Shown here piece after piece: positions 269-32,000 of a stretch of 32,000 nt of DNA. This DNA comes from Clostridia bacterium. GTDB taxonomy: Bacteria; Bacillota; Clostridia; TANB77; RGIG9151. Below the pieces are notes generated by a model. It worked only from the letters and a program-made list of their open reading frames with translations. It was not told where the DNA came from and searched no databases. Position 1 is the stretch's first letter; every line of letters begins with the position of its first letter. The stretch is from the NCBI GenBank assembly GCA_017934955.1, contig JAGBIO010000002.1, forward strand, positions 20,177-52,176, written 5' to 3'. A program made the position numbers and the translations under genes.

Positions 269-1207
269 ATGGATGAATTAAAAGTTTTTGGTTGTAATGC
301 AAGCAAAGAGTTTACTAAAGAAGTTTGCGATTGTCTCGGCGTTCATTTGGGTGAGAGTGAAGCATTTAAGTTTGACAATGACAATACATTTGTGAAGATT
401 TTAGAGACGGTAAGAGGAGACGACGTGTTTGTTATACAATCTTCTTGTCCGCCGGTGGATGAGAATTTTATGGAACTTTTAATTACGATTGACGCCTTAA
501 AGAGAGCGTCGGCAAAGCGGATTACAGCAATTCTTCCGTATTATCCTTATGCTCGTTCGGATAAGAAGGATCAGCCGAGAGTTTCTATTACTTCAAAGTT
601 GGTTGCAGATTTATTGACTGCAGCAGGGGCAAATCGTATTTTAACTTCAGATTTGCATGCCACACAGATTTTAGGATTCTTTAATATTCCGGCAGATCAG
701 TTGATTTTTGCGGATTTATTGGCAAACTATTTTAAGGAAAAGAACTTTGAGGATTTGGTAGTGGTTGCAACAGATGCAGGAAGCTCGAAAAAAGCGTATA
801 AATATGCGAAACGTTTGGATGCACCGATTGCGATGTTGGATAAAAGAAGATTGGGAAATTCGCAGGAAACATTGATTGAGAATATTGTGGGAGATGTAAC
901 GGGAAAAACTTGTGTTATTTTTGATGATGAAATCGATCGCGGAAGTTCGATTATGAATGCGGTTCGAGTTTTGGAAGATTATAATGTGAAGGAGATTTAT
1001 GCGGCTTGTTCGCATGGGGTATTGTCCGGTCCGGCAGTTGAGAGAATTAAAAATTCTTCTATTAAGGAATTGGTTATTACAAATACCGTTCCGCTTCCGC
1101 CGGAGAAGCAAATTGATAAGATTAAGGTGTTGACGGTTGCTCCGATTTTTGCGGAGGCAATTAAGAGAATTCATGAGGGACATTCGATGGGAGAAATGTT
1201 CTATTAA
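269..1207 (+). CDS. prs: Ribose-phosphate pyrophosphokinase (PRPP synthetase)
   Basis: 312-aa ORF with typical Prs layout (N-terminal MDELKVF..., PRPP-binding loop region VVVATDAGSSKKA, DDEIDRGSS). RBS AAGGGAG upstream of ATG 269. Confidence 0.93.
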   Translation: MDELKVFGCNASKEFTKEVCDCLGVHLGESEAFKFDNDNTFVKILETVRGDDVFVIQSSCPPVDENFMELLITIDALKRASAKRITAILPYYPYARSDKKDQPRVSITSKLVADLLTAAGANRILTSDLHATQILGFFNIPADQLIFADLLANYFKEKNFEDLVVVATDAGSSKKAYKYAKRLDAPIAMLDKRRLGNSQETLIENIVGDVTGKTCVIFDDEIDRGSSIMNAVRVLEDYNVKEIYAACSHGVLSGPAVERIKNSSIKELVITNTVPLPPEKQIDKIKVLTVAPIFAEAIKRIHEGHSMGEMFY

Positions 1208-1218
1208 TAGGAGGACGC

Positions 1219-1989
1219 ATGACAAAGATTGGCGTTTTTATCAATCAGGAAAAAGATACAGAGGGAAAGATTGCCGAAGAGATAGTATCCGCTGCCAAGA
1301 AATTGGGAGCGGACTGTTCTTTGGTGGAGAAAAATCAGTCGTATGATTTTGTCATTTCGGTTGGCGGAGACGGCACGTTTTTGGGAACTGCGAGAAAGTT
1401 TATGGAGTCGGGTACTCCGATTGTGGGAGTGAATTTGGGAAATTTGGGATATTTGACTGAAATTTCCAAAGAGCAAGTTCATGATGCTTTGGCACAGATT
1501 TTAGCGGGAAACTATACTGTAGAGGAACGGATTTTATTAGAAGCGGAGTTCTTGGGGCAAAAAATGTATGCCTTAAATGATATTGTGGTAAGCCGTGGGA
1601 TTCAGACCAAATTATTGGAGTTGAATTTATTTTTTGATGGAAAGTTTGTGGATCGATATCGGGCGGATGGTCTGATTTTAGCTACTCCTACGGGTTCTAC
1701 GGCGTATTCTTTGTCTTCCGGTGGTCCGATTGCAGAGCCGGCTTTGGATGTTTTGTTGGTGACGCCGATTTGTGCGCATTCGTTGTATCAAAGACCGATT
1801 ATTGTGCGTGGAGATACCGAGATAAGAGTGGAAACGCCGGGTTGTATGGTGGTGGCTGACGGACAGGAGTTACGGGAACATTATGAGGAAACTTCTGTGA
1901 TCATTCGGAAGTCGGAGAAAACGATAAAGTTGATGAAATTGAAAGATCATTTCTTTTTCGATACGGTGAGAAAGAAATTTATGAAATAG
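1219..1989 (+). CDS. nadK: NAD kinase
   Basis: 256-aa ORF with the GGDGT motif (VISVGGDGTFLG) and a conserved C-terminal NAD-kinase fold pattern. RBS GGAGG 8 nt upstream. The stop TAG 1987-1989 lies inside the first unit of the downstream tandem repeat. Confidence 0.92.
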   Translation: MTKIGVFINQEKDTEGKIAEEIVSAAKKLGADCSLVEKNQSYDFVISVGGDGTFLGTARKFMESGTPIVGVNLGNLGYLTEISKEQVHDALAQILAGNYTVEERILLEAEFLGQKMYALNDIVVSRGIQTKLLELNLFFDGKFVDRYRADGLILATPTGSTAYSLSSGGPIAEPALDVLLVTPICAHSLYQRPIIVRGDTEIRVETPGCMVVADGQELREHYEETSVIIRKSEKTIKLMKLKDHFFFDTVRKKFMK

Positions 1990-2148
1990 TTGTAAAGCAG
2001 GGAATGGACAGCATAAATGCTGTCCGTACAGAAGGTTGAGGAATAGTTGTAAAGTAGGGAATGGACAGCATAAATGCTGTCCGTACAGAAGGTTGAGAAA
2101 TAGATGTAAAGTAGAGAATGGACAGCATAAATGCTGTCCGTACAGAAA
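1986..2148 (+). repeat. Tandem array, 3 x 57 bp. Each unit carries one core palindrome GGACAGCATAAATGCTGTCC + GTACAG (cores 2006-2025, 2063-2082, 2120-2139).
   Basis: Units start at 1986, 2043 and 2100. Units 1 and 2 differ at 2 of 57 positions. Unit 3 diverges after GTACAGAA. Whole units are repeated, not only the hairpin. Confidence 0.92.
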
Positions 2149-2168
2149 TAGGTTGGCTGGAGGAAAAG

Positions 2169-3824
2169 ATGCTGTCACACGTTCATATAAAAAATCTTGG
2201 AATTATTGATGAAATTACGATTCATTTTGAGAAGGGCTTAAATATTTTGACGGGGGAAACCGGTGCGGGAAAGTCTTTGATTATTAATGCGATTCATATG
2301 ATTTTGGGAAATAAGATGTCGAAGGATTTTATTAGGACCGGTGCGGATAAAGCTGTTGCAGAGGCTTTATTTTTTATTGAGAATGATGTGTTAAAGAGTC
2401 GATTGGCGGCGTTAGGCTATGAGGAAGATGAAATCGTGATTTATCGGGAGTTACTGTTAAACGGACGAAGCGTGACGAAGGTGAACGGAAGATTGGTGAC
2501 GCTTGGCGAGTTGCGGGCTTTAGGTGAATTGCTGATTGACTTGCATGGGCAGCATGATAATCAGTCTTTGTTAAATCCAAAGAATCATTTGGAACTTTTG
2601 GATAATTTTGCGGGGAAGGAGCTTACAAAGCGACTTTTGGAGTATAAGGAATTTTATGAGAAACGAAGAAAGATTAAGGAGAAAATGGAACAACTTGGTG
2701 GAGAGCCGGAGAAGCGAATTCGCAGTATGGAGTTTTTGAAATTTCAGATTGAGGAAATTGAGGAGGCTTCGCTTTCAGTGGGAGAGGAAGAGGAGTTGAT
2801 TCGAAAACGAAATTTGTTTATGAATTCCGAGAAAATTATGCGGGTACTTGGTGCTTGTCATGAAGGATTATCGGGAGATTCCGGAGTTTTATCCCGTTTA
2901 GAGAAGATGATGAGCGGGTTGAGGGAAATTTCGACGGTAGAAGAAAAATATCAGGAGTATGAGGAGAAGGTTAGCGAAATTTATTATTTGGCGGAGGATA
3001 TTTCTTCGGTGTTGGGACGTGAGTCGGAGAAAGTGTTTGTGGATGAGAGTGAAATGAATGTGGTTACCGACCGTTTAGACTTGATTTTTAAGTTAAAAAA
3101 GAAGTATGGGGCAGATATTGAGACAATTTTGAAGACGTTAAAGGAGTTTCATGCAGAATATGAGGAGTTGTTGTCTTCGGAGGAGATTTTGACGCAGTTG
3201 ATGAGGGAACTTGAGGAGACTGAAAAAAAGATGCGGGAGTGCGGAAAGGTACTTTCGGAATTACGTCAAAAGGCAGGCAAGAAGTTAGAAACGGGACTTA
3301 CGGAGATTTTAACGGAGTTGGAGATGCCAAAGTCGCGATTTGAAATTTCAATCCGGTCGTCTGACCATTTTGGAGAAAACGGAATGGATTCGGTGGAATT
3401 TTTATTTTCTTCGAATTTGGGAGAGTCGGTAAAACCGTTGGCGAAAATTGCTTCGGGGGGCGAAATTTCAAGAATTATGCTTTCTCTAAAGAATGTTTTA
3501 TTAAATGCCGATATAATACCGGTAATGGTCTTTGATGAAATTGATGTCGGTATTAGCGGAAAGGCCGGTTTTGCGGTGGCAGAAAAGATGCATGAGATTG
3601 CTAAGGACAAGCAAGTCATCTGTGTGACGCATTTGGCGTCGATTGCAGCTTACGCGGATTGCCATTTTTATATTAGCAAGCAGGATGAGGATGGTCGGAC
3701 CGTTACGAGACTGAAGCGATTGTTACCGGAGGAACGAGTTCAGGAAGTGGCGAGAATTATCAGCGGCGGGAATATTACAGAGGCGTCTTTGGCGCATGCG
3801 AAGGAACTTATTGCGCTTCATTAG
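2169..3824 (+). CDS. recN: DNA repair protein RecN
   Basis: SMC-like ATPase with Walker A GETGAGKS, long coiled-coil middle, and C-terminal signature/Walker B region (SGGEISRIMLSL, VMVFDEIDVGISG). Start moved from the track start 2118 to ATG 2169 (GGAGG at 2157-2161), because residues 1-17 (MDSINAVRT...) are the translated repeat. Confidence 0.93.
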   Translation: MLSHVHIKNLGIIDEITIHFEKGLNILTGETGAGKSLIINAIHMILGNKMSKDFIRTGADKAVAEALFFIENDVLKSRLAALGYEEDEIVIYRELLLNGRSVTKVNGRLVTLGELRALGELLIDLHGQHDNQSLLNPKNHLELLDNFAGKELTKRLLEYKEFYEKRRKIKEKMEQLGGEPEKRIRSMEFLKFQIEEIEEASLSVGEEEELIRKRNLFMNSEKIMRVLGACHEGLSGDSGVLSRLEKMMSGLREISTVEEKYQEYEEKVSEIYYLAEDISSVLGRESEKVFVDESEMNVVTDRLDLIFKLKKKYGADIETILKTLKEFHAEYEELLSSEEILTQLMRELEETEKKMRECGKVLSELRQKAGKKLETGLTEILTELEMPKSRFEISIRSSDHFGENGMDSVEFLFSSNLGESVKPLAKIASGGEISRIMLSLKNVLLNADIIPVMVFDEIDVGISGKAGFAVAEKMHEIAKDKQVICVTHLASIAAYADCHFYISKQDEDGRTVTRLKRLLPEERVQEVARIISGGNITEASLAHAKELIALH

Positions 3825-3827
3825 GGC

Positions 3828-3856
3828 TTGACAAAGTTTTGTTTTTATGTTAACAT
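3828..3856 (+). promoter_or_regulatory. Candidate promoter for the 3889-7236 cassette
   Basis: TTGACA (3828-3833), 17 nt, TAACAT (3851-3856). There is no terminator between recN and this site, so read-through from recN is also possible. Confidence 0.3.
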
Positions 3857-3888
3857 AAATTATAATAGGTACTAAGGAGGAAATCCGA

Positions 3889-4452
3889 ATGAGTTTTTTG
3901 GAAGGAATAGAATTTCATGTCATTCAGCCGGTTGGCGTTAATGTTATGGCGTTTGCGATTAATTTTACGAAGAAAGAGCAGTGGTTGGAATCTCCTTTAT
4001 GTACTTTGGAGAAGTTAGAATATTCTGAAACGGCTGTAGATGGAAGAATTCAGCGGACTTTCTCAATTCCGTATTCCGATGAACCGATTCAAAATGTGGT
4101 GATTTTGTCTTTAGCGAAAACACGTTGTGTGGTTGGATACGGAAAAGTGGAGAATGGTGAGTTTGTTGAAGCGAAGGAAACCATTCAGCTTCAATACAGC
4201 AATTATGCGCAGGCAGATGTAGCCGAGAGAAATTATGAATTTACGTTTAATCCAAAGCGACAAATTGTTTTGGTGGATGTAGATGAGGGAAAACAACTGT
4301 TTCCGAGTATTTCAAAACCGGATATATTTGGAAATTTAAGAGGAGTTTATAAGCTAATTCCATATAGAAATTATATTGCACTTGAGATGAATGTAAGTAT
4401 TAAATTACCTAAGACGAAGGAATCGGAAGATTTGGAGAATATGCTGCTTTAG
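3889..4452 (+). CDS. Hypothetical protein (187 aa), first gene of the coupling-protein cassette
   Basis: Strong RBS AAGGAGG 8 nt upstream and host-like codon usage. I recognise no motif. Confidence 0.7.
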   Translation: MSFLEGIEFHVIQPVGVNVMAFAINFTKKEQWLESPLCTLEKLEYSETAVDGRIQRTFSIPYSDEPIQNVVILSLAKTRCVVGYGKVENGEFVEAKETIQLQYSNYAQADVAERNYEFTFNPKRQIVLVDVDEGKQLFPSISKPDIFGNLRGVYKLIPYRNYIALEMNVSIKLPKTKESEDLENMLL

Positions 4453-4465
4453 AGGGGGAATTTGA

Positions 4466-5074
4466 ATGAGTGAAATGGAATTTGGTTTGGCGGCGACGAG
4501 TTTGCGCTTTGAGGAAGGAAACACAATACATTTTGGACAAGGAAAGGCGATTCAATTAGAGGGGATTACTCCGCCGGTTGATATTGCGAGATTGAAGGCT
4601 GAATTGGCACAAGCACAAAGCTATGAAGCGACGTTAAATGTATTAAAGGCAAATGGTGTTGATACGAAGGCGTTTATTGAAGCAAATACTGCGTTAATGA
4701 TTTTAACTTCGCCGGAGGGTACGCAATTAATGTTGAATACAAATCCGGACGAGAAACTTACTTTAAATAAAACACTTAGTCCGGAAGTGGCATTGGAACT
4801 TCAGGATGCTGCCGCAAGAAATTCCGGTATTAGCATGAAAGAGATAGAAGAGATTTTGGTAGCGCGTGGATTGATGGAAGAGAAGAGACCAGATGTGGTT
4901 CATACGGAGGAAGATAGAGGATTTGTTCATGAAGATGCGAATATGGCGCCGGATTCTGTGTTTGGTGTAGCGGACAAGTCACAGACGGAGGCAGTAAGAG
5001 ATGCTACGCAGGAGGAAATGTACAGAAGACGTCAACACGAGAGAGAACATGGCATGGATGGCATGGACCGTTAA
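4466..5074 (+). CDS. Hypothetical protein (202 aa) with a charged, probably disordered C-terminal tail
   Basis: RBS GAGGGGG upstream. Starts 13 nt after the previous stop. C-terminus rich in E/D/R/H (EEMYRRRQHEREHGMDGMDR). No recognisable motif. Confidence 0.7.
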   Translation: MSEMEFGLAATSLRFEEGNTIHFGQGKAIQLEGITPPVDIARLKAELAQAQSYEATLNVLKANGVDTKAFIEANTALMILTSPEGTQLMLNTNPDEKLTLNKTLSPEVALELQDAAARNSGISMKEIEEILVARGLMEEKRPDVVHTEEDRGFVHEDANMAPDSVFGVADKSQTEAVRDATQEEMYRRRQHEREHGMDGMDR

Positions 5075-5118
5075 TCTGTTGATATTAAAATTTTGATTTA
5101 CGAAAGAGGAGAGAAATC

Positions 5119-7005
5119 ATGGCGAATTTCTTGAATGATAGAAAGAAGCGATACATATTTTTTGGAATTCTTTTATTGATACTGGACTTTTTCATTATTG
5201 GTTCATTTGCGGTGACGTATACGCAGTGTCTCCAGAATGGATGGGGTCTGTTTGAGGGTCTCAATAAAGGGGTTCCGTATTTTTTTAAGAATTTATGGCC
5301 GTTTACCATCCTTTCTTATTTGTTTCATTATGCCGAAACGAGAGCGATGTGGATGAATTTGGCACCGGCGGCGACTTTAATCGGATTAGTGGTTATTGTG
5401 GTTTTTGAAGTGAACCAGTTTTGGTTAAAAGGAGAATATGAAGGTGTTGAGCATGGTTCCAGCGGCTGGGCGGATGGTGAGCAATATCAGATCTTAAATC
5501 GGAATACCGGAATTATTTTGGCGCAGGATAATTATTTAACGACGGATAATAAGTTTATTAATAAGAATGTCTTAATCATAGGTGGTGCGGGTTCGAGAAA
5601 ATCCAGAGGTTATATTATGCCGAATATGTTGCAAATGTTGGGTTCTTATATCGTTACCGACCCGAAAGGTGAAAACTTTGATACAGCGGCGGGATTTTTA
5701 CGAGACAACGGTTATGAAGTGCGTTGTATCAATTTGGTAAACCCGGAGTGCAGTGACTCGTATAATCCGCTGTGGCATATCGGAAGTCCGTTGGACGTTG
5801 ATATTGTCAGTGATGCTTTGATTAAGAATACCAGTAAGGGTTCGACAAATGAGGACCCGTTCTGGCCGCAAGCAGAAAGAGCGTTACTAAATTCTTGTAT
5901 TTATTATTTGTTGAGTGAAGTGCCGAAGGAAGAGCAGTCTTTGGCAAGTTGTTTGGCGATGGTTCGTGCGGGGGAAAATTTCGATTGGATGGACGATGTA
6001 TTTATGCGTCTTCCGTTTGAACATATGGCGAGAAAGAGTTATGAGACATTTCGTTTGGCGGTAGATAAGACGAGAGCGGGAGTTTTGGTTGGATTGGCAA
6101 CGCGTCTTAACGTGTTTGATACACCGCAGATTTCTTCAATTACCGGTAGCAGTTCGATCGATATTGATGCGATGGGTGAGAAAAAAATGGCTACTTTCGT
6201 TATTACACCGGATAGCCATAGTGCGTTTAACTTTATTCCGACGATGTTCTTCGGTCAGGTTTTGCAGAGATTGTATTTTAAGGCGGATCAGAATGGAGGA
6301 AAGTTGGATATACCGGTCTTCTTCCTCCTCGACGAGTTTGCGAATACGGGGCAAATTCCGGATTTTAACCAGAAGTTAAGTACCAGCCGAAGCAGAAATA
6401 TTAATATCAGTATTGTATTGCAGAGTATTGACCAGTTGATGGATATGTATAAAGATATTTATGAGAATATTATGGCGAACTGTGATACGCATTTGTTCTT
6501 AGGCAGTCAGGCAGTAAAAACGTGTGAGTATATTTCGAAGAGTTTGGGAGAAACTACAATTAATAAGAAACAACATTCCGTTAGTGGTCCGTTGGAAGGC
6601 ATTTTATCGGCAGGCGCGGGTCAAAAGTCCGAGAGTATTTCAGATAATTCGATGGGTAGAGCTTTAATGACGATTGATGAGTTAAAGCGTTTGCCGTTAG
6701 ATACCAGTATCGTTATGGTAAAGGGTATGAAGCCGATTAAGGCGAAAAAATATGATGTTTCGATGCATCCGAAGGATAAGGAGAGAATGAAGTGCAAGTT
6801 GGATCATAATGATCCGACGTTGAATCATCGTATGGAGTACAAGATTGTATATCCGTATGGCTTAAAGACCGGCCCGGCAGATACTTCTTCGCCGCTTCAT
6901 CCGAACGGAATGAATCCGGAGCCGGAAGTAGATTTGGGGGACGATGATATTCAAAAGCAGTTGGAAGCGAAATTTGATGAATTATTTGGTAGTTTAAATT
7001 CCTAA
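5119..7005 (+). CDS. VirD4/TraG/TraD-family type IV coupling protein-like ATPase (membrane anchored)
   Basis: N-terminal hydrophobic segments (IFFGILLLILDFFIIGSFAV; LAPAATLIGLVVIVVF). P-loop IIGGAGSRKSRG. Walker B block FFLLDEFANTGQIPDF followed by SRSRNINISIVLQSIDQL, the pattern typical of T4CPs. RBS AGAGGAG. Confidence 0.82.
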   Translation: MANFLNDRKKRYIFFGILLLILDFFIIGSFAVTYTQCLQNGWGLFEGLNKGVPYFFKNLWPFTILSYLFHYAETRAMWMNLAPAATLIGLVVIVVFEVNQFWLKGEYEGVEHGSSGWADGEQYQILNRNTGIILAQDNYLTTDNKFINKNVLIIGGAGSRKSRGYIMPNMLQMLGSYIVTDPKGENFDTAAGFLRDNGYEVRCINLVNPECSDSYNPLWHIGSPLDVDIVSDALIKNTSKGSTNEDPFWPQAERALLNSCIYYLLSEVPKEEQSLASCLAMVRAGENFDWMDDVFMRLPFEHMARKSYETFRLAVDKTRAGVLVGLATRLNVFDTPQISSITGSSSIDIDAMGEKKMATFVITPDSHSAFNFIPTMFFGQVLQRLYFKADQNGGKLDIPVFFLLDEFANTGQIPDFNQKLSTSRSRNINISIVLQSIDQLMDMYKDIYENIMANCDTHLFLGSQAVKTCEYISKSLGETTINKKQHSVSGPLEGILSAGAGQKSESISDNSMGRALMTIDELKRLPLDTSIVMVKGMKPIKAKKYDVSMHPKDKERMKCKLDHNDPTLNHRMEYKIVYPYGLKTGPADTSSPLHPNGMNPEPEVDLGDDDIQKQLEAKFDELFGSLNS

Positions 7006-7065
7006 AATCCCTATGTATTATTTTGTTCGGAAAGAAAAAAATAATACCATAGAGAGGTGAGAAAT

Positions 7066-7236
7066 ATGAGTCGTTTTGCGAAGGGAATTATTGCCGGCAG
7101 TGTGATTGCGGCGGCACTTGGTGTGACCGGTATGGCAAATAACAGATGGATGAAGAGAAGAGTTTGGAAACCGAGTAAGTCGGCTGCGAAGAAGCTTGCA
7201 AGAATGATGAATGAGGTTGCAAATATGATTGACTAA
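7066..7236 (+). CDS. Small membrane peptide (56 aa), below the ORF-track cutoff
   Basis: Hand translation: MSRFAKGIIAGSVIAAALGVTGMANNRWMKRRVWKPSKSAAKKLARMMNEVANMID. RBS GAGAGGTGA 6 nt upstream. One hydrophobic helix, then a basic tail. A strong terminator follows directly. Confidence 0.5.
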   Translation: MSRFAKGIIAGSVIAAALGVTGMANNRWMKRRVWKPSKSAAKKLARMMNEVANMID

Positions 7237-7248
7237 AAGTATTGAAAA

Positions 7249-7283
7249 CTAAGGACAGCATATGGTATGCTGTCCTTAGTTTT
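7249..7283 (+). terminator. Intrinsic terminator whose stem contains the repeat-family core
   Basis: Perfect 14-bp stem CTAAGGACAGCATA / TATGCTGTCCTTAG (7249-7262 / 7266-7279), 3-nt loop, then TTTT (7280-7283). Confidence 0.7.
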
Positions 7284-7958: not shown

Positions 7959-8882
7959 ATGGCGATTAATAAGGTGTTTCAGGCGGCATTAAAGGCGCTT
8001 TCTTATCCAGATTTGGATTTTAAAAAGAATTACGGAATGGCGAGAAAGTTTGAGGGGACTATTTATAAAGAATATGCCGGCGATGATGTGGAGAAGCAGG
8101 ATCATTTTTTTGATTTTGAGGAGAGAAAAATCCGAGTACGGTCTTATCGGGCAAAATCAGCGGAAGAAAAGAGCATTTTGGTTTTTATTCATGGCGGTGG
8201 CTGGGTGTTAGGCTCGGTGGATACTTATGATGATACCTGTGCAGAACTTTCAAAGGCGACGAATTCTACCGTTCTTTCGATTGATTACAGTTTATCGCCG
8301 GAGGTGAAGTTTCCGGTGGCTTTGGAAGAATGCTATAAATTGATAAAAGACATCTTTTGGATGAATGAAGTTCTTTACAGGGAAAAAGCGGAGATTACTT
8401 TAATTGGAGATAGTGCCGGCGGGAATCTTGTTGCGGCTTTATCGATGATGTTTCGGGATAGAGGGGAATTTTCGGTTGTAAAGCAGATTTTGATTTATCC
8501 GGTGACCTACTATACGCATAATCCGGCTCTTTCGCCGTTTGAATCGGTTAGAAGCAACGGAGAAAATTATTTGCTTACAGCGAAGAGATTATGCGATTAT
8601 ACCGAGATGTATGTGAATCAAGAGGAAAATTTAGAGAATCCGTATTTGGCACCGTTATTGGCGAAGGATTTTTCGAATTTGCCGGATACGTTATTGATTA
8701 CGGCGGAATATGATCCTTTGCGAGATGAGGGCGAGTCTTTTGGCGTGAAGTTGAAAGATGCGGGAAATTATGTAGAAATGTATCGTGTGGAAGATACGTT
8801 GCATGGCTTTTTTCACCTTCCGCCTAAGTTTTCTTATGTGCAGACGGTGTATCAATATATCAATCATTTTTTGAATCGCTGA
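7959..8882 (+). CDS. Alpha/beta hydrolase, esterase/lipase of the HSL-like (fold-3) type
   Basis: Oxyanion motif HGGGW, nucleophile elbow GDSAGG, C-terminal DPLRDE and H (LHGF). RBS GGAGG. Confidence 0.85.
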   Translation: MAINKVFQAALKALSYPDLDFKKNYGMARKFEGTIYKEYAGDDVEKQDHFFDFEERKIRVRSYRAKSAEEKSILVFIHGGGWVLGSVDTYDDTCAELSKATNSTVLSIDYSLSPEVKFPVALEECYKLIKDIFWMNEVLYREKAEITLIGDSAGGNLVAALSMMFRDRGEFSVVKQILIYPVTYYTHNPALSPFESVRSNGENYLLTAKRLCDYTEMYVNQEENLENPYLAPLLAKDFSNLPDTLLITAEYDPLRDEGESFGVKLKDAGNYVEMYRVEDTLHGFFHLPPKFSYVQTVYQYINHFLNR

Positions 8883-8935
8883 TATGTCCCTTAAGACTTG
8901 TTTTGCATAATATAGAATGAAGGGGTTTGAGGCTA

Positions 8936-9226
8936 ATGTTAAAGAATATTACAAAAAATGAAGCCCGAATACTTTTGGAAAATCATGCAAAAGTGATCGA
9001 TATCAGAGATAAGAGTGATTTTAATCGTTCTCATTTAAAAGGCTCACTCAACATTGAGCCTCAAGATATTGAGAATATTTTAAATATATACCCTGACAAA
9101 AATACGATGTTGATTGTGGTTTGTGCATCCGGTATCAGAAGTATTGCTGTTGCCGAGATGCTGATTGATTTGGGTTATAAAGAAGTGTATAATTTATTGG
9201 GCGGATATGATGAATATTTTAAATAA
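8936..9226 (+). CDS. Rhodanese-domain protein (single domain)
   Basis: Active-site loop CASGIRS. Start taken as ATG 8936 rather than the track TTG 8927. Confidence 0.78.
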   Translation: MLKNITKNEARILLENHAKVIDIRDKSDFNRSHLKGSLNIEPQDIENILNIYPDKNTMLIVVCASGIRSIAVAEMLIDLGYKEVYNLLGGYDEYFK

Positions 9227-9257
9227 AAAAAGAAAACCGAAATCGGTTTTCTTTTTT
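9225..9257. terminator. Bidirectional intrinsic terminator shared by the rhodanese gene and tRNA-Arg
   Basis: Stem AGAAAACCG / CGGTTTTCT (9231-9239 / 9244-9252), flanked by an A-run on the left and a T-run on the right. Confidence 0.7.
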
Positions 9258-9333
9258 GGTGTGCCTGAGACGATTCGAACGTCCGGCCAACGGCTTAGAA
9301 GGCCGTTGCTCTATCCTGCTGAGCTACAGGCAC
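9257..9333 (-). tRNA. tRNA-Arg (anticodon TCT), CCA encoded
   Basis: The reverse complement folds as a cloverleaf: acceptor GTGCCTG/CAGGCAC, D arm GCTC..GAGC, anticodon stem ACGGC/GCCGT with loop CTTCTAA, T arm GGACG TTCGAAT CGTCT, discriminator A + CCA. 77 nt. Confidence 0.93.
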
Positions 9334-9351
9334 ATGTCTTATTGCTTATAT

Positions 9352-9381
9352 ATTATATACCAAATTAGTTATAAATTGCAA
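9352..9381 (-). promoter_or_regulatory. Candidate promoter for tRNA-Arg
   Basis: On the minus strand: TTGCAA (9376-9381), 18 nt, TATAAT (9352-9357), 18 nt upstream of the mature 5' end. Confidence 0.3.
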
Positions 9382-9453
9382 TAGTTTTTGTAAAAAAAAT
9401 TTAGAAAGTGGTTACAGGTCAGGCTTAACAACTTATTATTTTCGCGAAAGCCT

Positions 9454-9653
9454 TGTAGGGACAGCATTCATGCTGTCCTTTATTCCACATTTTCTGTGGA
9501 CAGCATAGTAGTCAAAACTTCCCAATCACTTCGTTCTTGGAGTTTTTTTACACAGGACGTACAAGCCATTCACTTCGTTCATGGTGTTACGTCCGCGAAT
9601 GCTGTCCCTACACTATTTATGCTTTTTCTATAAATTTAAGTCTGACCAGTAAC
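9454..9653. repeat. Second inverted doublet. Parts: TGTAG + core (9459-9478, minus orientation); 19-nt spacer; plus-oriented core split into 9498-9507 and 9598-9607 + CTACA (9608-9612); right arm ending TCTGACCAGTAAC (9641-9653).
   Basis: Aligns module by module with 23-133, including the approximately 45-nt right arm. Confidence 0.85.
9508..9597 (+). mobile_element. 90-nt structured insert (MITE-like) sitting exactly in the loop of a core palindrome
   Basis: GGACAGCATA | insert | AATGCTGTCC, versus the intact GGACAGCATAAATGCTGTCC at 68-87. The insert starts GTAG. It holds an 11-nt direct repeat TCACTTCGTTC (9526-9536, 9570-9580), each inside a small hairpin (CCAA..TTGG, CCAT..ATGG), and an outer stem GGACGTA/TACGTCC (9555-9561 / 9588-9594). 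Confidence 0.55.
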
Positions 9654-9693
9654 AGAAATTGGTTTCAGTTCAGACTAAAGTTGTTGCAAATAT

Positions 9694-9767
9694 ATCGGTA
9701 CGTCAAGGACGCCGTCTCCTACAATGGTTGTAGCATCATTATAAAAAGCTATATTCTGAACTGTAAC
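9694..9767 (+). repeat. Composite element with the second core type: ATCGGTACGTCAAGGACGCCGTCTCC + TACA (9694-9723), degenerate CAATGGT..ATCATT hairpin, right arm AAAGCTATATTCTGAACTGTAAC
   Basis: The reverse complement of 9694-9723 matches 18138-18167 at 27 of 30 positions. The downstream modules match 22501-22551. Confidence 0.75.
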
Positions 9768-9846
9768 TTATTTTCGGATAATCTGCAAGAACTTTATTGG
9801 TACTTTTGATGATTTGTGATAGAATCTTAGCAAGGAGGGTGAGATT

Positions 9847-10605
9847 ATGAAAAATTTATTTGATTTGACGGGTAAAGTAGCGATTGTGACGGGTTCGAGT
9901 CGTGGTTTAGGACAGGCGATTTGTGTGGCTTTGGCGGAGAATGGTGCGAATGTGGTTGGAGTGAGTCAGTCGAGTAGTGAGGAGACAAAGTCGTTGGTAG
10001 AAAAAGCGGGTGGTAAGTTTGCTTGGGTGAAGGCGGATCTTACTACTTTAGAGGCGGTTGATGAGATTATAAATACGGCGAAAGAGACGTTTGGAAGAGT
10101 GGATATTTTAGTAAATAATGCGGGAACGATTCGTCGTGCGGATGCGGTGGATTATACCGAGAAGGATTGGGACGATATTTTGAATTTGAATTTAAAAACA
10201 GCGTTTTTCTTATCGCAGAGAGTGGCGAAGGAGTTTATGGAACAGAAACAGGGCGGAAAGATTGTGAATATTGCTTCTATGCTTACATTCCAAGGGGGTA
10301 TTCGTGTGCCGGCTTATACGGCAAGCAAGAGTGCGATTGGCGGTGTGACAAAGGCGTTGGCGAATGAGTGGGCGAAGTATGGAATTAATGTGAATGCGAT
10401 TGCACCGGGTTATATGGCGACGGATAATACGCAGGCGCTTCGTGCGGATGAAAAGAGAAGCGAGGAGATTTTGAGCCGAATTCCGGCTGGACGTTGGGGG
10501 ACACCGGAGGATTTAATGGGCGCGGTCGTTTTCTTGTCTTCGGCGGCTTCGGACTATGTGAATGGACATATTTTGGCGGTTGATGGTGGTTGGTTGGCGA
10601 GATAA
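9847..10605 (+). CDS. kduD: 2-dehydro-3-deoxy-D-gluconate 5-dehydrogenase (SDR family)
   Basis: TGSSRGLG cofactor motif and YTASK catalytic motif. The C-terminal half (NIASMLTFQGGIRVPAYTASKS...NVNAIAPGYMATDNT...IPAGRWG...VDGGWLAR) is very close to KduD as I remember it. Confidence 0.85.
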   Translation: MKNLFDLTGKVAIVTGSSRGLGQAICVALAENGANVVGVSQSSSEETKSLVEKAGGKFAWVKADLTTLEAVDEIINTAKETFGRVDILVNNAGTIRRADAVDYTEKDWDDILNLNLKTAFFLSQRVAKEFMEQKQGGKIVNIASMLTFQGGIRVPAYTASKSAIGGVTKALANEWAKYGINVNAIAPGYMATDNTQALRADEKRSEEILSRIPAGRWGTPEDLMGAVVFLSSAASDYVNGHILAVDGGWLAR

Positions 10606-10704
10606 ATAAAGGGATTCCTTCTTTGAAAAAATAGCAAGAATGGATTATTTATGAAAAAATTGGGTAATCTATTTTTGCAAAATTTTTTTGAAGGAGGAAT
10701 TTTT

Positions 10705-11130
10705 ATGTATAATTTAGTGCCATGGGAAAACAGAAACGGTAGTGTATTTGACTATTTGGATCATTGGGAGAAAAACTTATGGGAAGGTCTTTCGGGGGCG
10801 ACAAATAGTTTTAAGACGGATATTATTGATAAAGGGGATAAATATCTTCTTCAGGCGGAGTTGCCGGGGTTTGAGAAGAAGGATATTTATATCGATATTG
10901 ATGGAGATTATTTGACGATTCAGGCAGAGAAAGATGATAGTAAGGAGTATGATGAGACGGATAAGGTGATTAAGAAGGAGCGGTATTATCATTCGTATGC
11001 GAGAAGTTTTCGGGTTTCGGGTGTGGAGAAGGATAAGATTACAGCGGAGTATAAAAACGGAGTTTTGGAGATGGCGTTACCAAAAACAGAAATGAAACAT
11101 GAGGGCGGTACGCAGATTGAGGTGCAATAA
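10705..11130 (+). CDS. Hsp20/alpha-crystallin family small heat-shock protein
   Basis: Alpha-crystallin domain (AELPGFEKKDIYIDIDGDYLTIQAE ... NGVLEMALPK). Start moved to ATG 10705, 8 nt after AAGGAGG (10691-10697). Confidence 0.88.
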   Translation: MYNLVPWENRNGSVFDYLDHWEKNLWEGLSGATNSFKTDIIDKGDKYLLQAELPGFEKKDIYIDIDGDYLTIQAEKDDSKEYDETDKVIKKERYYHSYARSFRVSGVEKDKITAEYKNGVLEMALPKTEMKHEGGTQIEVQ

Positions 11131-11150
11131 GGATAGGCAAGAGAAAAGAA

Positions 11151-11197
11151 AAAATAAAGGCAATTACGAAGGAAAATGCCTTTATTTTTTCTTTTTT
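11151..11197 (+). terminator. Intrinsic terminator after hsp20
   Basis: 12-bp stem AAAATAAAGGCA / TGCCTTTATTTT (11151-11162 / 11177-11188), then a T-run. Confidence 0.5.
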
Positions 11198-11253
11198 CCT
11201 GCCTTGATAATTCTCGCAAATTGTGATAATCTTCTATCTTGGAGGAGTTTATT

Positions 11254-12417
11254 ATGTACAATGTCATTTTAGTAAGATATGGTGAAATTGCCTTGAAGGG
11301 AAATAACAGGGCGAAATTTGAGAAAAAATTAGTGGATAATATTAAGGACGCTTTGCGTGGAGAAAAGGTGAAAATTCAGATTTCGCAGGCGAGAGTATAT
11401 ATTGAACCGGAGGAACCGGAGTTTTTGGATCGGATTATGGAGAAGACGAGACGGGTGTTTGGTATTGTTTCGATTAGTCCGGCTGTGAAGATTGATAGTG
11501 ATTATGATTTGATTAAGAAAACGGCGGTTCAATTAATGGAAGAGGAAAATTTGAATGAGACGTTTAAGGTGGAGGCGCGTCGTGGAGATAAGAGTTTTCC
11601 GAAGGATTCCATGGAAATTGCGAAAGAGGTTGGCGGCTATATTTTATCGAAGATAAAGGGTCTTCGGGTGGATGTGACGAAGCCGGAGACGTTGTTGACG
11701 ATTGAAGTGAGAGAGAAAACCTATATTTACATAGAGAAGATTCCGGCACTTGGCGGTATGCCGGTTGGAACGAACGGAAAGGCTTTATTGCTTGTTTCGG
11801 GTGGAATCGATAGTCCGGTTGCGGGGTATATGTTGGCGCGTCGTGGGGTTGAGATTGATGCGTTGCATTTCTTTAGTCCTCCATATACGGGACCGAAGGC
11901 TCGTGAAAAGGTTATTGATTTGTGTAAGATTTTGGCGGGGTATTGTAAGAAAGTGAATTTATATATTGCGAATTTTACCGAACCGCAGTTGGCGATTCGG
12001 GATAATTGTCCGGCGGATCAGATGGTGTTGTTGATGCGTCGTATTATGATGAGAGTGGCGGAGCGTGTTGCGGCGGCGAAGGGCTGTGATGCTTTGCTTA
12101 CGGGGGAGAATATCGGACAAGTGGCGAGTCAGACGATGAAGTCGATTGTAGCGACGAATGATGTTTGCAGTATTCCGGTGTTTCGCCCGTTAATTGGATT
12201 GGACAAGAATGATATTATTGATATTGCGAAGAAGATTGGAACTTATGAGACTTCTATTTTGCCGTATGAGGATTGCTGTACGATTTTTGTGCCGAAGCAT
12301 CCGGAGACGCAGCCGAAGATTGAGAAGTTAAAGAAGTCGGAGGAACATTTGGCGATTGAGGAAATTGTGGAGACGGTGGTTAATAATTTAGAGCGTATTG
12401 AGATATTGGGAAATTAG
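11254..12417 (+). CDS. thiI: tRNA 4-thiouridine(8) synthase ThiI
   Basis: N-terminal ferredoxin-like/THUMP pattern (VILVRYGEIALKGNNR) and PP-loop SGGIDSPVA. Start ATG 11254 after GGAGGAG. Confidence 0.9.
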   Translation: MYNVILVRYGEIALKGNNRAKFEKKLVDNIKDALRGEKVKIQISQARVYIEPEEPEFLDRIMEKTRRVFGIVSISPAVKIDSDYDLIKKTAVQLMEEENLNETFKVEARRGDKSFPKDSMEIAKEVGGYILSKIKGLRVDVTKPETLLTIEVREKTYIYIEKIPALGGMPVGTNGKALLLVSGGIDSPVAGYMLARRGVEIDALHFFSPPYTGPKAREKVIDLCKILAGYCKKVNLYIANFTEPQLAIRDNCPADQMVLLMRRIMMRVAERVAAAKGCDALLTGENIGQVASQTMKSIVATNDVCSIPVFRPLIGLDKNDIIDIAKKIGTYETSILPYEDCCTIFVPKHPETQPKIEKLKKSEEHLAIEEIVETVVNNLERIEILGN

Positions 12418-12425
12418 AAGAAAGT

Positions 12426-12451
12426 GGACAGCATAAATGCTGTCCGTACGG
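12426..12451 (+). repeat. Single core palindrome GGACAGCATAAATGCTGTCC + GTACGG between thiI and mutL
   Basis: Read directly. Lies 9 nt after the thiI stop. Confidence 0.9.
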
Positions 12452-12492
12452 ATAGAAAGAGCAGACATGATGTGTGGAAGGAGAGGGGTGTT

Positions 12493-18551: not shown

Positions 18552-18576
18552 TATACAGAGAATTTGGGTGAGGTAT

Positions 18577-18673
18577 GGACAGCATGAATGCTGTCCGTAC
18601 GGAGATTGAGATATAAAGTGTTACTAAAGGCATTAATGAGAAGGAATGGACAGCATGAATGCTATCCGTACGG
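18577..18673 (+). repeat. Two core palindromes 71 nt apart: 18577-18596 + GTACGG, and 18648-18667 + GTACGG (the second has one stem mismatch, GCTATCC)
   Basis: Read directly. Lies between secG and rnr. Confidence 0.9.
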
Positions 18674-18694
18674 AAGGGAAGAGACATTTAAGTT

Positions 18695-21456: not shown

Positions 21457-21487
21457 AAAAGAGGCTGTCTTGGGACGGCCTCTTTTC
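21457..21487 (+). terminator. Intrinsic terminator
   Basis: 9-bp stem GAGGCTGTC / GACGGCCTC (21461-21469 / 21474-21482), loop TTGG, then TTTT. Confidence 0.75.
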
Positions 21488-21585
21488 CTTAATGGACAGC
21501 ATGAATGCTGTCCGTACAGTGAGATAGAAATATATTTCCTTAATGGACAGCATGAATGCTGTCCGTACAGTAAGATAGAAAACAT
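21487..21585 (+). repeat. Tandem array, 2 x 51 bp, each unit with core GGACAGCATGAATGCTGTCC + GTACAG (21494-21513, 21545-21564)
   Basis: Units start at 21487 and 21538. Lies in the convergent gap before the thioesterase stop. Confidence 0.9.
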
Positions 21586-22319: not shown

Positions 22320-22341
22320 TTTGATTCCTCCTTAGTTATTG

Positions 22342-22551
22342 GGACACAATAAATTGTGTCCGTACAATGATTGCGATATCATCGTAGAAAGCGATATTTT
22401 GAACTGTAATATTTTTAGCTTAGAATTAGGACAGCATGAATGCTGTCCGTACGGTGCAGAGCTCTTTTAGATTAGAATGTGGACAGCATGAATGCTGTCC
22501 CTACAATGATAGCACACAATCATTGTAGAAAGCTATATTTTGAACTGTAAC
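22342..22551 (+). repeat. Cluster of three cores plus modules. Parts: variant core GGACACAATAAATTGTGTCC + GTACA (22342-22366) with hairpin-2 and right arm (to 22410); core 22429-22448 + GTACGG; core 22481-22500 + CTACAATGAT-N7-ATCATTGTAG (22501-22528) + AAAGCTATATTTTGAACTGTAAC (22529-22551).
   Basis: Read directly. Fills almost the whole gap between the thioesterase start and the pseudouridine synthase stop. Confidence 0.9.
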
Positions 22552-23413: not shown

Positions 23414-23447
23414 GATTTTCCTCCTTATAAAGTGGATTTTAATTGAT

Positions 23448-23472
23448 GGACAGCATGAATGCTGTCCGTACA
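23448..23472 (+). repeat. Single core GGACAGCATGAATGCTGTCC + GTACA between mutS2 and the pseudouridine synthase gene
   Basis: Read directly. Confidence 0.9.
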
Positions 23473-23504
23473 AGGGTTTTGTATAACATTAGACTTGTTT
23501 CATA

Positions 23505-26013: not shown

Positions 26014-26041
26014 GGAGACAGTATGAATGCTGTCCGTACGG
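26014..26041 (+). repeat. Degenerate core GGAGACAGTATGAATGCTGTCC + GTACGG
   Basis: Aligns to the family with a 2-nt insertion and one stem mismatch. Confidence 0.7.
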
Positions 26042-26088
26042 GACAGAGGAACTTTAATGAAAAGGAAAATTACGGAGGAGGAATTGGG

Positions 26089-27906: not shown

Positions 27907-27973
27907 CTGAGAAATTTTTGTTATGGATCAGACAATCTTTTTTATATCTTCCTAAAATAATGATACAATTTGT

Positions 27974-28003
27974 TGTAGGAACACAATAAATTGTGTCCCT
28001 ACA
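27974..28003. repeat. Variant core flanked on both sides by the tail: TGTAG-GAACACAATAAATTGTGTCC-CTACA
   Basis: Same CA/TG stem variant as 22342-22361, with one extra A in the 5' arm. Confidence 0.8.
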
Positions 28004-28053
28004 GAGGGGGAGAGGTAATAAGGTAAAGAATAAGGCTGATTTTGGAGGAGAAG

Positions 28054-30494: not shown

Positions 30495-30826
30495 TATGCA
30501 TTATCACCGGTTTTCAAGAAATTGGGCTAAAGAAGAAAAATGATTAAAAAAGTCAAAAAACACCTTTCCCTTTGATGTTATGTAAAGTTCCGATGTTCAA
30601 CCCTGCACGTGTGGGTATGTCGAAAGGTGGTATGCGTAGATATAAGGAATTTATCTTTTGATAAAAAATAATTTATAAAGTTGAAAAAAAATATATATTT
30701 GTCCGTTTTTTTAGACACACTGGTTATTTATTAAGTGTAAGGAAAATTTGTACCTTGATAAATGAATAGTGTGTTTTTTATTTTGGGATAATCGGACAAA
30801 ACTAAAAAAGAAAGTGAGGTATAAAA

Positions 30827-31885
30827 ATGGAGTATATTTTAGAATTAAAGCAAATTGTTGATTATCCACGAGTTAGAGTTTATCGTGAATTTATTCAAAC
30901 TTTAATAAATCATAAAGAATTATCAGTAAAGGGGAATTGTAATTTGTTTAACTACATAGTTTTATGCTGTTATGCGAATTATAGTACTTCAAAGAAAAGT
31001 ATTGACGGAAAAAAATATCTGATAGCACCAGGACAGTGGCTCTGTTCAATTAAAGATATAATGAAATGGTTTAATTTAACAAAGGCAAAAAGTTTAGAAG
31101 TTTTAGAGAACTTACAAAAACTTGATGTTATAGAATATGAAATAATAAACGAATATGTTTTTTATAAAATTATAGATTGGGGTAAATCTAACTCATTTAT
31201 GGAATATGAAGCACATTGTCAAAAAGATGATGGCTTTTTCTTTTTTCCGTTTGATTATATTGATAGGTTCTTAAAACAAGGTGAAAAATGCTCTGAAAAG
31301 GATATATTGATGGATTTATGGCTTAATACTATTTATAATGACAATAGAGTAGATGGATCTAAAGTAGGACCAGTAGTTTATTTCAGAAATGGAACCGGAA
31401 ATCCGAGAACCTGCTATAGTTTTTTGGCAAAAAGATGGAATAGTTCAAAAGCTACAGTATGCAGACAATTAGAAAAACTACAAGAAAATAATTATATTAC
31501 TTATATTAATTTTTCAGGAAGATACGGGAGTGTAATTTACTTAAATGGATATATGTCTTTGATGTTTAGAATATCAGATGTACCTATTGATAAGAAAGAA
31601 GTAGCTTTGGCATTGAAATTAAAAATTGAACTTGAAGAAGAAATTGAGGAAAATATCGTTTCGGAAGAAAAGATTATCGTTTCAAAAAGTGGTCTAAAAA
31701 TTATCGAAGAAAAACTTAAAGAAACACTTAATTTATCAGGGTTTGGCTGTGCTGTTTGCAAAGCAAGTTCCTCTCTATTATATAGATTATCTTTAGACTG
31801 CAATATGTATATGTTTAAAGTACTATGTAAGAAAGGAAAAGATTACAAATTTTTAACTAAAATTAGGAGAGAGAATTCGGGTTAG
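30827..31885 (+). CDS. Hypothetical protein with two winged-helix-like segments (possible replication/DNA-binding protein of a mobile element)
   Basis: 352-aa ORF, RBS AGTGAGG. Two similar segments (...WFNLTKAKSLEVLENLQKLDVIEY, ...RWNSSKATVCRQLEKLQENNYITY). The function is a guess. Confidence 0.6.
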   Translation: MEYILELKQIVDYPRVRVYREFIQTLINHKELSVKGNCNLFNYIVLCCYANYSTSKKSIDGKKYLIAPGQWLCSIKDIMKWFNLTKAKSLEVLENLQKLDVIEYEIINEYVFYKIIDWGKSNSFMEYEAHCQKDDGFFFFPFDYIDRFLKQGEKCSEKDILMDLWLNTIYNDNRVDGSKVGPVVYFRNGTGNPRTCYSFLAKRWNSSKATVCRQLEKLQENNYITYINFSGRYGSVIYLNGYMSLMFRISDVPIDKKEVALALKLKIELEEEIEENIVSEEKIIVSKSGLKIIEEKLKETLNLSGFGCAVCKASSSLLYRLSLDCNMYMFKVLCKKGKDYKFLTKIRRENSG

Positions 31886-31898
31886 GAGTGATGAATAA

Positions 31899-32000
31899 AT
31901 GATTAAGGATGAAAAATGGTACTTTCATAACACAAAAGAGCTATTAAAAAAATATAGACAAGTAATGATGTGTGTTGGTGAAAACTTAGATGAGATAGAG
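31899..32000 (+). CDS. 5' part of an ORF truncated by the window end (possibly a small phage/ICE-type transcriptional regulator)
   Basis: ATG 31899, 10 nt after AGGAG. 34 in-frame codons (MIKDEKWYFHNTKELLKKYRQVMMCVGENLDEIE) reach the window edge. Confidence 0.45.
   Translation, partial: MIKDEKWYFHNTKELLKKYRQVMMCVGENLDEIE

Follow-up and report, generated by a model that had tools for sequence, protein, structure and literature searches.

A VirD4-type coupling protein without nearby conjugation genes belongs to a widespread, apparently vertically inherited chromosomal module in uncultured Clostridia

Genes for type IV coupling proteins (T4CPs) count as hallmarks of conjugation and type IV secretion. 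What, then, is the gene for a VirD4/TraG-family T4CP doing behind recN in a Clostridia bacterium (assembly GCA_017934955.1, contig JAGBIO010000002.1), amid housekeeping genes? The window analysed here, a stretch of 32,000 nucleotides (nt) of that contig, holds at 3828-7283 a cassette that runs from a promoter-like site through two genes without family assignment (OrfA and OrfB), the T4CP gene and a small peptide gene to a terminator hairpin (Table 1). All four genes were found on the + strand where a first-pass annotation, made from the sequence alone, had placed them; beyond that annotation, the cassette turns out to be one member of a large and widespread clade. The reading I favour, with somewhat more confidence than doubt, is that a clade descended from T4CPs of the CD1115/Tn1549 type left the mobile elements, was recruited by its hosts together with its partner genes and has since been inherited vertically. 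I place more confidence in the module being host-inherited, rather than part of an integrative and conjugative element (ICE), than in this exaptation model as a whole, and much less in the specific roles of adaptor and cargo that OrfA and OrfB might have by analogy.

The position behind recN is itself conserved. A scan for relatives with one genome per GTDB species found five related species, all of them uncultured Eubacteriales/Clostridia metagenome-assembled genomes (MAGs) and one of them from goat rumen, and the gene order prs-nadK-recN-OrfA-OrfB-T4CP-peptide is the same in all five. Between the window and these species Prs is ~90% identical, RecN 53-58% and NadK ~50%, while the T4CP is 74-78% identical over its whole length, 86-90% in its cytoplasmic part (aa 106-560), 80-85% in its last 20 residues and 25-39% in its transmembrane (TM) anchor (aa 1-105). 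OrfA is 44-63% identical, the 56-aa peptide 39-54% (loci L002-L006) and OrfB 17-28%, the latter in the same orthologous loci in which the T4CP core stays at 86-90%. As the catalytic domain of the T4CP evolves about as slowly as Prs, the cassette is not a decaying relic; at the level of sequence, these identities show the cytoplasmic domains and the tail peptide to be under strong purifying selection. The cassette had been described at first pass as embedded in the core genome after recN; the same recN-flanked position is found in five related species.

The composition of the cassette (GC 0.40-0.42, GC skew +0.27 to +0.38) is indistinguishable from that of its flanks, and no conjugation or integration genes were detected among the scanned open reading frames (ORFs) of the window, both in agreement with the first-pass annotation. 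Among these ORFs there is no VirB4, VirB6, PrgI/VirB3, VirB8-like protein or cell-wall hydrolase, and no relaxase domain (an oriT was not searched for). No integrase was detected in the window ORFs either, and there are no direct repeats flanking the cassette apart from a dispersed host palindrome.

A protein search with the T4CP gave 3892 matches, and the best 120 of them fall into tiers of at least 74%, 53-63% and 39-48% identity. In a neighbour-joining tree all top matches sit on one long branch apart from four canonical T4CPs, and the best plasmid matches are 32-37% identical to the protein of the window. I inspected the contexts of ten relatives (39-57% identity) individually, with flanks of 8-10 kb. 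Neither VirB4, VirB6 or PrgI nor a relaxase lies within this distance in any of the ten, and nine of the ten sit among core or housekeeping genes. The neighbours are mreBCD and a penicillin-binding protein gene in L007, spoVG, uvrC and guaB in L008, dnaB, tilS, ftsH, rarA and dut in L009, a dnaJ-like gene followed by sbcD, sbcC, prfB and pcrA in L012, L013 and L019, a dnaJ-like gene and prfB in L015 and L016, rpsB, tsf and secDF in L020, and ligA and nth in L021. The positions of the module are thus lineage-specific, though stable and always among housekeeping genes in these loci; since the neighbours differ by lineage and several act in DNA repair or replication without any consistent partner, no functional inference is drawn from them. 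In the largest subclade, pairwise T4CP identities are correlated with those of the neighbouring dnaJ-like, sbcD and prfB genes (Spearman coefficients of 0.84-0.89), as vertical co-divergence predicts.

In order to compare the clade with mobile elements on a larger scale, metagenomes were scanned with the alignment of the T4CP clade as query, since the OrfA alignment was too divergent for scanning. This gave 80 loci (38-77% identity), many of them from human-gut assemblies and on contigs of up to 406 kb. The same alignment found 80 loci in IMG/VR (31-37% identity), none of which is a member of the orphan clade; they hold canonical mobile-element T4CPs only and served as the mobile-element control. 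Neighbouring genes were probed with VirB4, VirB6, PrgI, PcfB, DUF3801, Maff2, DUF6017, MobQ, CHAP and SLT proteins from canonical loci (blastp, 1e-5), MobQ being the only relaxase family among the probes. At least one of these conjugation genes was matched in 80 of the 80 control loci (PcfB 77, Maff2 71, VirB6 59, PrgI 53, VirB4 50) and near the orphan T4CP in none of the 80 metagenome loci, PcfB included. The reverse holds for OrfA: an OrfA-family gene, detected by hidden Markov model (HMM), lies on the same strand and at most 800 nt from the T4CP in 65 of the 66 metagenome loci with at least 900 nt of upstream room, and in 0 of the 80 control loci. Taken with the ten inspected contexts, the 80 metagenome loci indicate that the relatives do not lie inside ICEs or plasmids, in keeping with the first-pass reading of an orphan T4CP.

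The T4CP itself belongs to a known protein family. It matches the Pfam families T4SS-DNA_transf (PF02534, E 3.5e-67, 227.7 bits), TraG-D_C (PF12696, E 2.6e-32, 111.8 bits) and TrwB_AAD_bind (PF10412, E 2.8e-19, 69.7 bits, spanning aa 148-539), with cut-offs of ~20-22 bits, and scores 416 bits against NCBIfam NF045973, 'VirD4-like conjugal transfer protein, CD1115 family' (conju_CD1115, cut-off 250), over aa 131-554; there is no match to the Pfam family FtsK_SpoIIIE. Two TM-like hydrophobic segments start at ~aa 9-20 and 76-87, so that the first-pass assignment to the membrane-anchored VirD4/TraG-type ATPases stands, with two of the motifs it had named, GGAGSRKS and FFLLDEFANTG, in place. The layout is that of a two-TM anchor, a nucleotide-binding and an all-alpha domain, with a variable linker leading to a C-terminal peptide that is conserved. 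The anchor, the two cytoplasmic domains and the motifs HGSSxW and DEF are shared with the VirD4-like T4CPs of monoderm ICEs and plasmids (NF045973; Tn1549/CTn4-type; the copies on pCDC3875 and in the Vescimonas and Monoglobus ICEs). Unlike these CD1115-type proteins, to which the window T4CP is 31-37% identical, the orphan T4CP is not encoded beside PcfB/DUF3801, Maff2, VirB6, PrgI, VirB4 and a relaxase, whereas four plasmid or ICE loci that were inspected have the order DUF3801 or PcfB, T4CP, (Maff2), VirB6, PrgI, VirB4, hydrolase. The orphan module is furthermore chromosomal, syntenic and co-diverging with core genes, and it has OrfA and OrfB in place of PcfB and an invariant C-terminal peptide of its own.

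This C-terminal peptide, which follows the variable low-complexity linker, has the clade consensus D[ILV]QK[EQ]LE[AEK]KFDELFG (in short DxQKxLEAKFDELFG) and is the best-conserved segment of the T4CP across the clade, with a conservation of 0.82 vs 0.65-0.76 for the catalytic domains. All 76 complete orphan T4CP ORFs have it (73 with the strict pattern and 3 as close variants), and it is absent from the four canonical T4CPs and from every ORF of the 80 control loci. I infer from this conservation that it may be a docking motif. The all-alpha domain of conjugative T4CPs is thought to vary with the cognate relaxase; across the orphan clade it is conserved as much as the ATPase core. Together, the conserved all-alpha domain and the invariant peptide suggest a single ligand or partner shared by all members of the clade.

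A further difference from the CD1115-type T4CPs is restricted to the subclade of the window, where an Arg takes the place of the invariant Gly before the Lys of the Walker A motif. The motif reads GGAGS[R/K]KS in all 33 sequences of the two tiers nearest to the window (at least 53% identity) and GG[SA]GxGK[ST] in the other 90, the four canonical T4CPs among them. The window protein therefore does not match the pattern GxxGxGK[ST], although it keeps the Lys and the Ser; the Walker B residues D405 and E406, as well as F407, are invariant in the T4CP alignment (A5). In P-loop NTPases the Gly before the catalytic Lys is rarely replaced, MCM proteins tolerating Ala or Ser there. The exchange would imply an altered nucleotide handling in this subclade, and because it is strictly conserved within a domain that is 86-90% identical, I argue that function is probably modified rather than lost. 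As to whether the ATPase motifs are degenerate, a point raised at first pass, the answer is consequently a divided one: Walker A is partly deviant throughout the subclade, and Walker B is intact.

OrfA and OrfB are indeed proteins without a family, as first proposed: neither matches Pfam, NCBIfam or PADLOC, matches to PHROGs are weak (E ~0.01 or worse, for the 56-aa peptide too), and neither has a TM segment. A Pfam scan of 30 members of the OrfA family was empty as well. The family counts 52 close homologues, and 53 clusters at 50% identity were found in a profile search of 1.84e9 representative proteins; between subclades the identity falls to ~20-25%. OrfA homologues 5' of the T4CP in L009, L012 and L015 are recognised at HMM E-values of 1e-54 to 1e-74 (hhalign probability 97.8% for L009). 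An AlphaFold2 model from close homologues was poor, with a predicted local distance difference test (pLDDT) of 66 and no fold matches, whereas the model from a deep and diverse alignment is all-beta, with 13 strands, at a pLDDT of 84.9 and a predicted template-modelling score of 0.79. Its fold matches suggest that OrfA may consist of two beta-sandwiches; the best of them in PDB and BFVD are generic Ig-like tandem sandwiches at E>=0.008 and a TM-score of ~0.2, no match reached E<1e-3 in either database (Foldseek), and a sequence-profile search of the PDB was empty. The structure prediction called for at first pass has thus given a confident all-beta model of OrfA, and the structure search no counterpart in PDB or BFVD. 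OrfA was also considered as a DUF3801 protein and rejected (hhalign against a DUF3801 protein, probability 0.1%).

OrfB is hypervariable, with 7 homologues found. Its C-terminal half is charged and probably disordered, ending in ...RRRQHEREHGMDGMDR (...GMDGMDR). The slot between OrfA and the T4CP holds a small ORF of 52-215 aa in 68 loci, and ~16 of 43 distinct sequences from this slot end in [DE]R; two loci, L026 and L094, have a longer OrfA-family ORF (210 aa), with 9-15 nt between its end and the T4CP gene. A divergent PcfB or DUF3801 protein was considered for OrfB too and rejected, with no match in Pfam or NCBIfam and an hhalign probability of 0.1% against a DUF3801 protein. The peptide gene has a narrower distribution. 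Its only family match is a weak, sub-threshold one to DUF3042, and in the individually inspected contexts of other clades it is not found downstream of the T4CP. I therefore regard the 56-aa peptide and the A/U-rich hairpin before its gene as an addition specific to the window's own lineage and not as a general part of the module, so that of the four-gene set described at first pass, OrfA-OrfB-T4CP recurs across the clade and the fourth gene is confined to this lineage.

The module appears to have its own sigma-A-type promoter. The putative site lies inside the 64-nt gap after recN, has 10 of 12 consensus matches and an extended -10 TG, and similar TTGACA/TATAAT-like sites, as judged by eye, stand 5' of OrfA in the majority of related loci. 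Within the dnaJ-like/sbcCD subclade, the OrfA leader (~60-70 nt from the promoter-like site) has a recurring inverted repeat CTATG...(loop)...CATAG (L012 ~9000-9077, L015 ~9050-9128, L019 ~7000-7080), which may be a conserved hairpin of the 5' untranslated region. The hairpin that was said to separate the ATPase gene from the peptide gene is present, and a similar one folds at the same place in five of five orthologous loci folded singly (z -2.9 to -4.7). An alignment of the window and seven orthologous loci shows compensatory changes in 2 of its 14 predicted pairs, and since no U-tract follows, it is not a classical terminator. As had been noted, the terminator that closes the cassette contains the core of a host repeat; 31 matches to this palindrome, GGACAGCAT..ATGCTGTCC, occur in the window vs 1.3 expected.

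How could such a module work? In the model that I favour, host recruitment of a T4CP, the protein would form the usual membrane-anchored hexameric ring, and because the TM region is poorly conserved, the N-terminal helices probably act as an anchor only. The all-alpha domain and the invariant C-terminal peptide would recruit the single ligand or partner common to the clade, OrfA would be a dedicated cytoplasmic adaptor, and OrfB a fast-evolving regulator or cargo. Precedents for recruitment by a T4CP tail are F-plasmid TraD, whose tail binds TraM, and Legionella DotL, whose tail binds the adaptors IcmS, IcmW, DotN and LvgA. The DotL coupling complex is mentioned in a recent review (PMC12857230). 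Recruitment in the orphan clade would be analogous, serving a host process instead of conjugation: in the orphan T4CP, as in TraD and DotL, a variable linker leads into a C-terminal peptide that is short, conserved and acidic/hydrophobic, and small dedicated proteins are encoded alongside. TraD and DotL feed the channel of a type IV secretion system (T4SS), whereas no such channel is evident near the orphan T4CP, and neither OrfA nor OrfB showed similarity in sequence or fold to TraM, IcmSW or PcfB. As OrfA diverges to ~20-25% identity, the partner of the invariant peptide may be a cellular protein more conserved than OrfA.

A bolder form of this reading, which I put forward tentatively, is a self-sufficient housekeeping machine in a wide range of gut and rumen Clostridia. 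A T4CP ring with the predicted beta-sandwich protein OrfA and with OrfB as hypervariable cargo or regulator would move or anchor DNA or protein at the membrane without any T4SS channel, the C-terminal peptide plugging into a universal cellular partner. Streptomyces TraB and FtsK/SpoIIIE (PMC3548315) are relatives in the FtsK/HerA/VirD4 ATPase superfamily that act alone, as single membrane-anchored hexameric translocases for which no multi-protein channel is encoded; these proteins are, however, of the FtsK branch, whereas the window T4CP is of the VirD4 branch and at most a putative DNA translocase. Of the options left by the first-pass annotation, a stand-alone module is thus the favoured one, the domesticated remnant is contradicted by how very strongly the module is conserved, and a defence module finds no support.

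Several observations weigh against host recruitment, or at least against parts of it. OrfA is missing from one sub-branch, represented by L014, which has a serine recombinase close by in a neighbourhood that looks partly mobile, so that not every member is plainly a core gene. Matches to the OrfA profile are weak for the OrfA-like proteins of the 53-63% tier (HMM E ~2e-6 in a tiny database), and hhalign of a narrow OrfA profile (A2) against these proteins was negative. The exchange of Gly for Arg in Walker A could make the T4CP of the window inactive as an ATPase. The neighbourhood data cover flanks of 8-10 kb, and a T4SS, a type VII secretion system (T7SS) or another channel encoded elsewhere may use the T4CP in trans. 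OrfA has no structural analogue in PDB or BFVD, and OrfB is uninformative as to function. Finally, the carriers are uncultured MAGs or metagenome contigs, their taxonomy resolved to Clostridia, for which misassembly or mis-binning could not be assessed individually; as the module is replicated across more than 90 loci, I argue against such an artefact as a general explanation.

The best surviving alternative, an unlikely one in my view, takes up the point about channels elsewhere: in a split system, the T4CP and its adaptors would serve a channel encoded at a distance, such as a VirB4/VirB6 cluster that lacks a T4CP, a type VII (EssC) system or a type IV pilus, and export DNA or protein in a conjugation-like manner. 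T4CPs are substrate receptors that need a channel. According to a 2025 review (PMC12857230), the partners of VirB4- and VirD4-like proteins in some systems are unknown proteins, type IV pili or ESX/T7SS. An EssC-like FHA-FtsK ATPase is encoded ~2 kb downstream of the module in L015 and L016. This EssC neighbour is, however, found in one lineage only, and in more than 90 loci the 8-10 kb around the T4CP contain no channel gene. The TM anchor, with which a T4CP usually contacts the channel subunits, is the least conserved part of the protein (25-39% identity), and a conserved channel partner would need an inheritance as universal and as vertical as that of the module. Still less probable is a role in defence against plasmids, in which a host paralogue of the T4CP, possibly with an impaired ATPase, would titrate relaxosomes or poison the T4CP hexamers of invaders, OrfB being the specificity component. 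The hypervariability of OrfB, the deviant Walker A in the window's subclade and the abundance of CD1115-type ICEs in gut Clostridia would agree with it. PADLOC, however, gave no meaningful match (mad8 alone, E 9.5e-4, 16.8 bits, for the T4CP, and nothing for OrfA, OrfB or the peptide), and Walker A is still canonical in most members of the clade. Defence genes are moreover typically patchy and found in islands, whereas this module is syntenic and co-diverges with core genes, with a T4CP catalytic core about as conserved as Prs. A last alternative, in which the cassette would be what is left of a conjugative or mobilizable element that integrated, was fixed after recN by chance and is now decaying, is hardly tenable and contradicted by the data. 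Although the nearest named family is conjugative and the cassette compact, with its own promoter and terminator, its four ORFs are all intact, an identity of 86-90% in the T4CP core compares with 53-58% in RecN across the same species, the composition is that of the host, integrase, relaxase and direct repeats are missing from the flanks, and the architecture recurs throughout a deep clade.

A literature search of incomplete coverage found no account of a chromosomal, vertically inherited orphan VirD4-type T4CP module in Firmicutes; the words orphan, exapted and domesticated are absent from a 2025 review of T4SSs (PMC12857230), and a phylogenomic analysis of conjugation ATPases describes no such module. 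The T4CP protein family is known, then, and the module with its OrfA and OrfB partners is apparently new, no description of it having been found. If host recruitment is true, a large vertical clade without a nearby T4SS would clearly exemplify the recruitment of a coupling protein to a host function, and if the self-sufficient, channel-free form is true, it would be the first T4CP with a cellular role outside conjugation and T4SSs; in either case the clade would raise the question of what a lone T4CP ring can do. There is a practical side as well. Since its 416 bits exceed the cut-off of 250, annotation pipelines will name the orphan T4CP a "VirD4-like conjugal transfer protein", and gut-metagenome surveys of the mobilome or of ICEs that count T4CP matches will therefore over-call conjugation genes. 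The C-terminal peptide together with the OrfA profile offers a simple filter for orphan T4CPs in such surveys. With many carrier contigs coming from human-gut assemblies, the module may matter for abundant uncultured commensals.

Table 1. Features of the cassette and other features of the 32,000-nt window (positions in the window)
Feature	Position	Strand	Basis or remark
prs	269-1207	+	ORF list, family matches
nadK	1219-1989	+	ORF list, family matches
recN	2118-3824	+	ORF list, family matches
Sigma-A-type promoter-like site, TTGACA-17-TAACAT, upstream TG (TG-n-TAACAT)	3828-3856	+	consensus match
OrfA, 187 aa, predicted cytoplasmic all-beta protein, conserved partner of the orphan T4CP	3889-4452	+	ORF list
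OrfB, 202 aa, hypervariable	4466-5074	+	ORF list
VirD4/TraG-family T4CP homologue, 628 aa	5119-7005	+	ORF list, profile matches
Non-canonical Walker A GGAGSRKS, aa 155-162	5581-5604	+	Arg replaces invariant Gly before Lys
Walker B Asp-Glu, D405 and E406, in FFLLDEFANTG	6331-6336	+	motif
Clade-specific C-terminal peptide DIQKQLEAKFDELFG, aa 610-624, after variable linker	6946-6990	+	clade conservation
Imperfect A/U-rich hairpin between T4CP stop codon and ribosome-binding site of the peptide gene	7011-7052	+	-13.9 kcal/mol, z -3.3
Peptide gene, one TM segment, basic tail	7066-7236	+	56 aa from ATG; 59 aa from GTG at 7057
Terminator hairpin with perfect 18-bp stem, closing the cassette	7245-7283	.	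-26 kcal/mol, z -6.6
ORF of 228 aa	20767-21453	+	no Pfam or NCBIfam match
ORF of 612 aa	26023-27861	+	no Pfam or NCBIfam match
ORF of 352 aa	30827-31885		weak HTH_36 match, its only one
Copies of the REP-like palindrome	17-110, 1973-2147, 7245-7283, 9448-9480, 9598-9609, 12416-12462, 18567-18684, 21484-21581, 22332-22517, 23438-23484, 26017-26048, 27969-28015		intergenic

Among the relatives, some contexts deserve a note of their own. The L014 locus (8526-12013), which stands for the sub-branch P0096-P0101, keeps the C-terminal peptide, with three unrelated small genes upstream and genes for HU, small sigma-like proteins and the serine recombinase nearby, the latter two downstream; a member of this type may sit on a non-conjugative mobile element. 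L007 comes from a MAG labelled 'Deltaproteobacteria bacterium' (GCA_050258375.1) in which the module lies beside MecA, MreBCD and RadC of the Firmicutes type, which suggests that the assembly is mislabelled or mis-binned. Two further genes recur beside the module in the 53-63% tier, one for a protein of 126-129 aa upstream and one for a protein of 202-242 aa downstream, both of unknown function and without Pfam match (8455-8844 and 11885-12613 in L007, 8534-8914 and 11876-12484 in L008). The EssC-like ATPase gene of the one lineage mentioned above encodes 1536 aa with an FHA and repeated FtsK_SpoIIIE domains and is found at 14175-18785 in L015 and at 7720-12330 in L016.

The palindrome in the terminator belongs to a dispersed, intergenic element resembling repetitive extragenic palindromes (REP-like), with the core GGACAGCAT(N3)ATGCTGTCC, often followed by GTAC. 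The gap between nadK and recN holds three tandem 57-nt units of it. As copies of the repeat overlap the first candidate starts of recN and mutL (2118 and 12424), both genes probably start farther downstream.

Downstream of the peptide gene follow a gene of the metallo-beta-lactamase fold, an alpha/beta hydrolase, a rhodanese, tRNA-Arg on the opposite strand (the only match in an Rfam scan of the window), a short-chain dehydrogenase/reductase, hsp20 and thiI, and farther along lie mutL, miaA, sepF, divIVA, RNase R and mutS2. The GC skew is strongly and uniformly positive over the whole window (1-32000, +0.19 to +0.57 per 1-kb window), and nearly all genes are on the + strand, except for a block at ~21.5-25.9 kb, where the AT skew is strongly negative. 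Past a tRNA/rRNA uracil-methyltransferase-like gene, the GC content falls abruptly to ~28% at 30500-32000, in the region of the 352-aa ORF, possibly the margin of an island gained by horizontal transfer.

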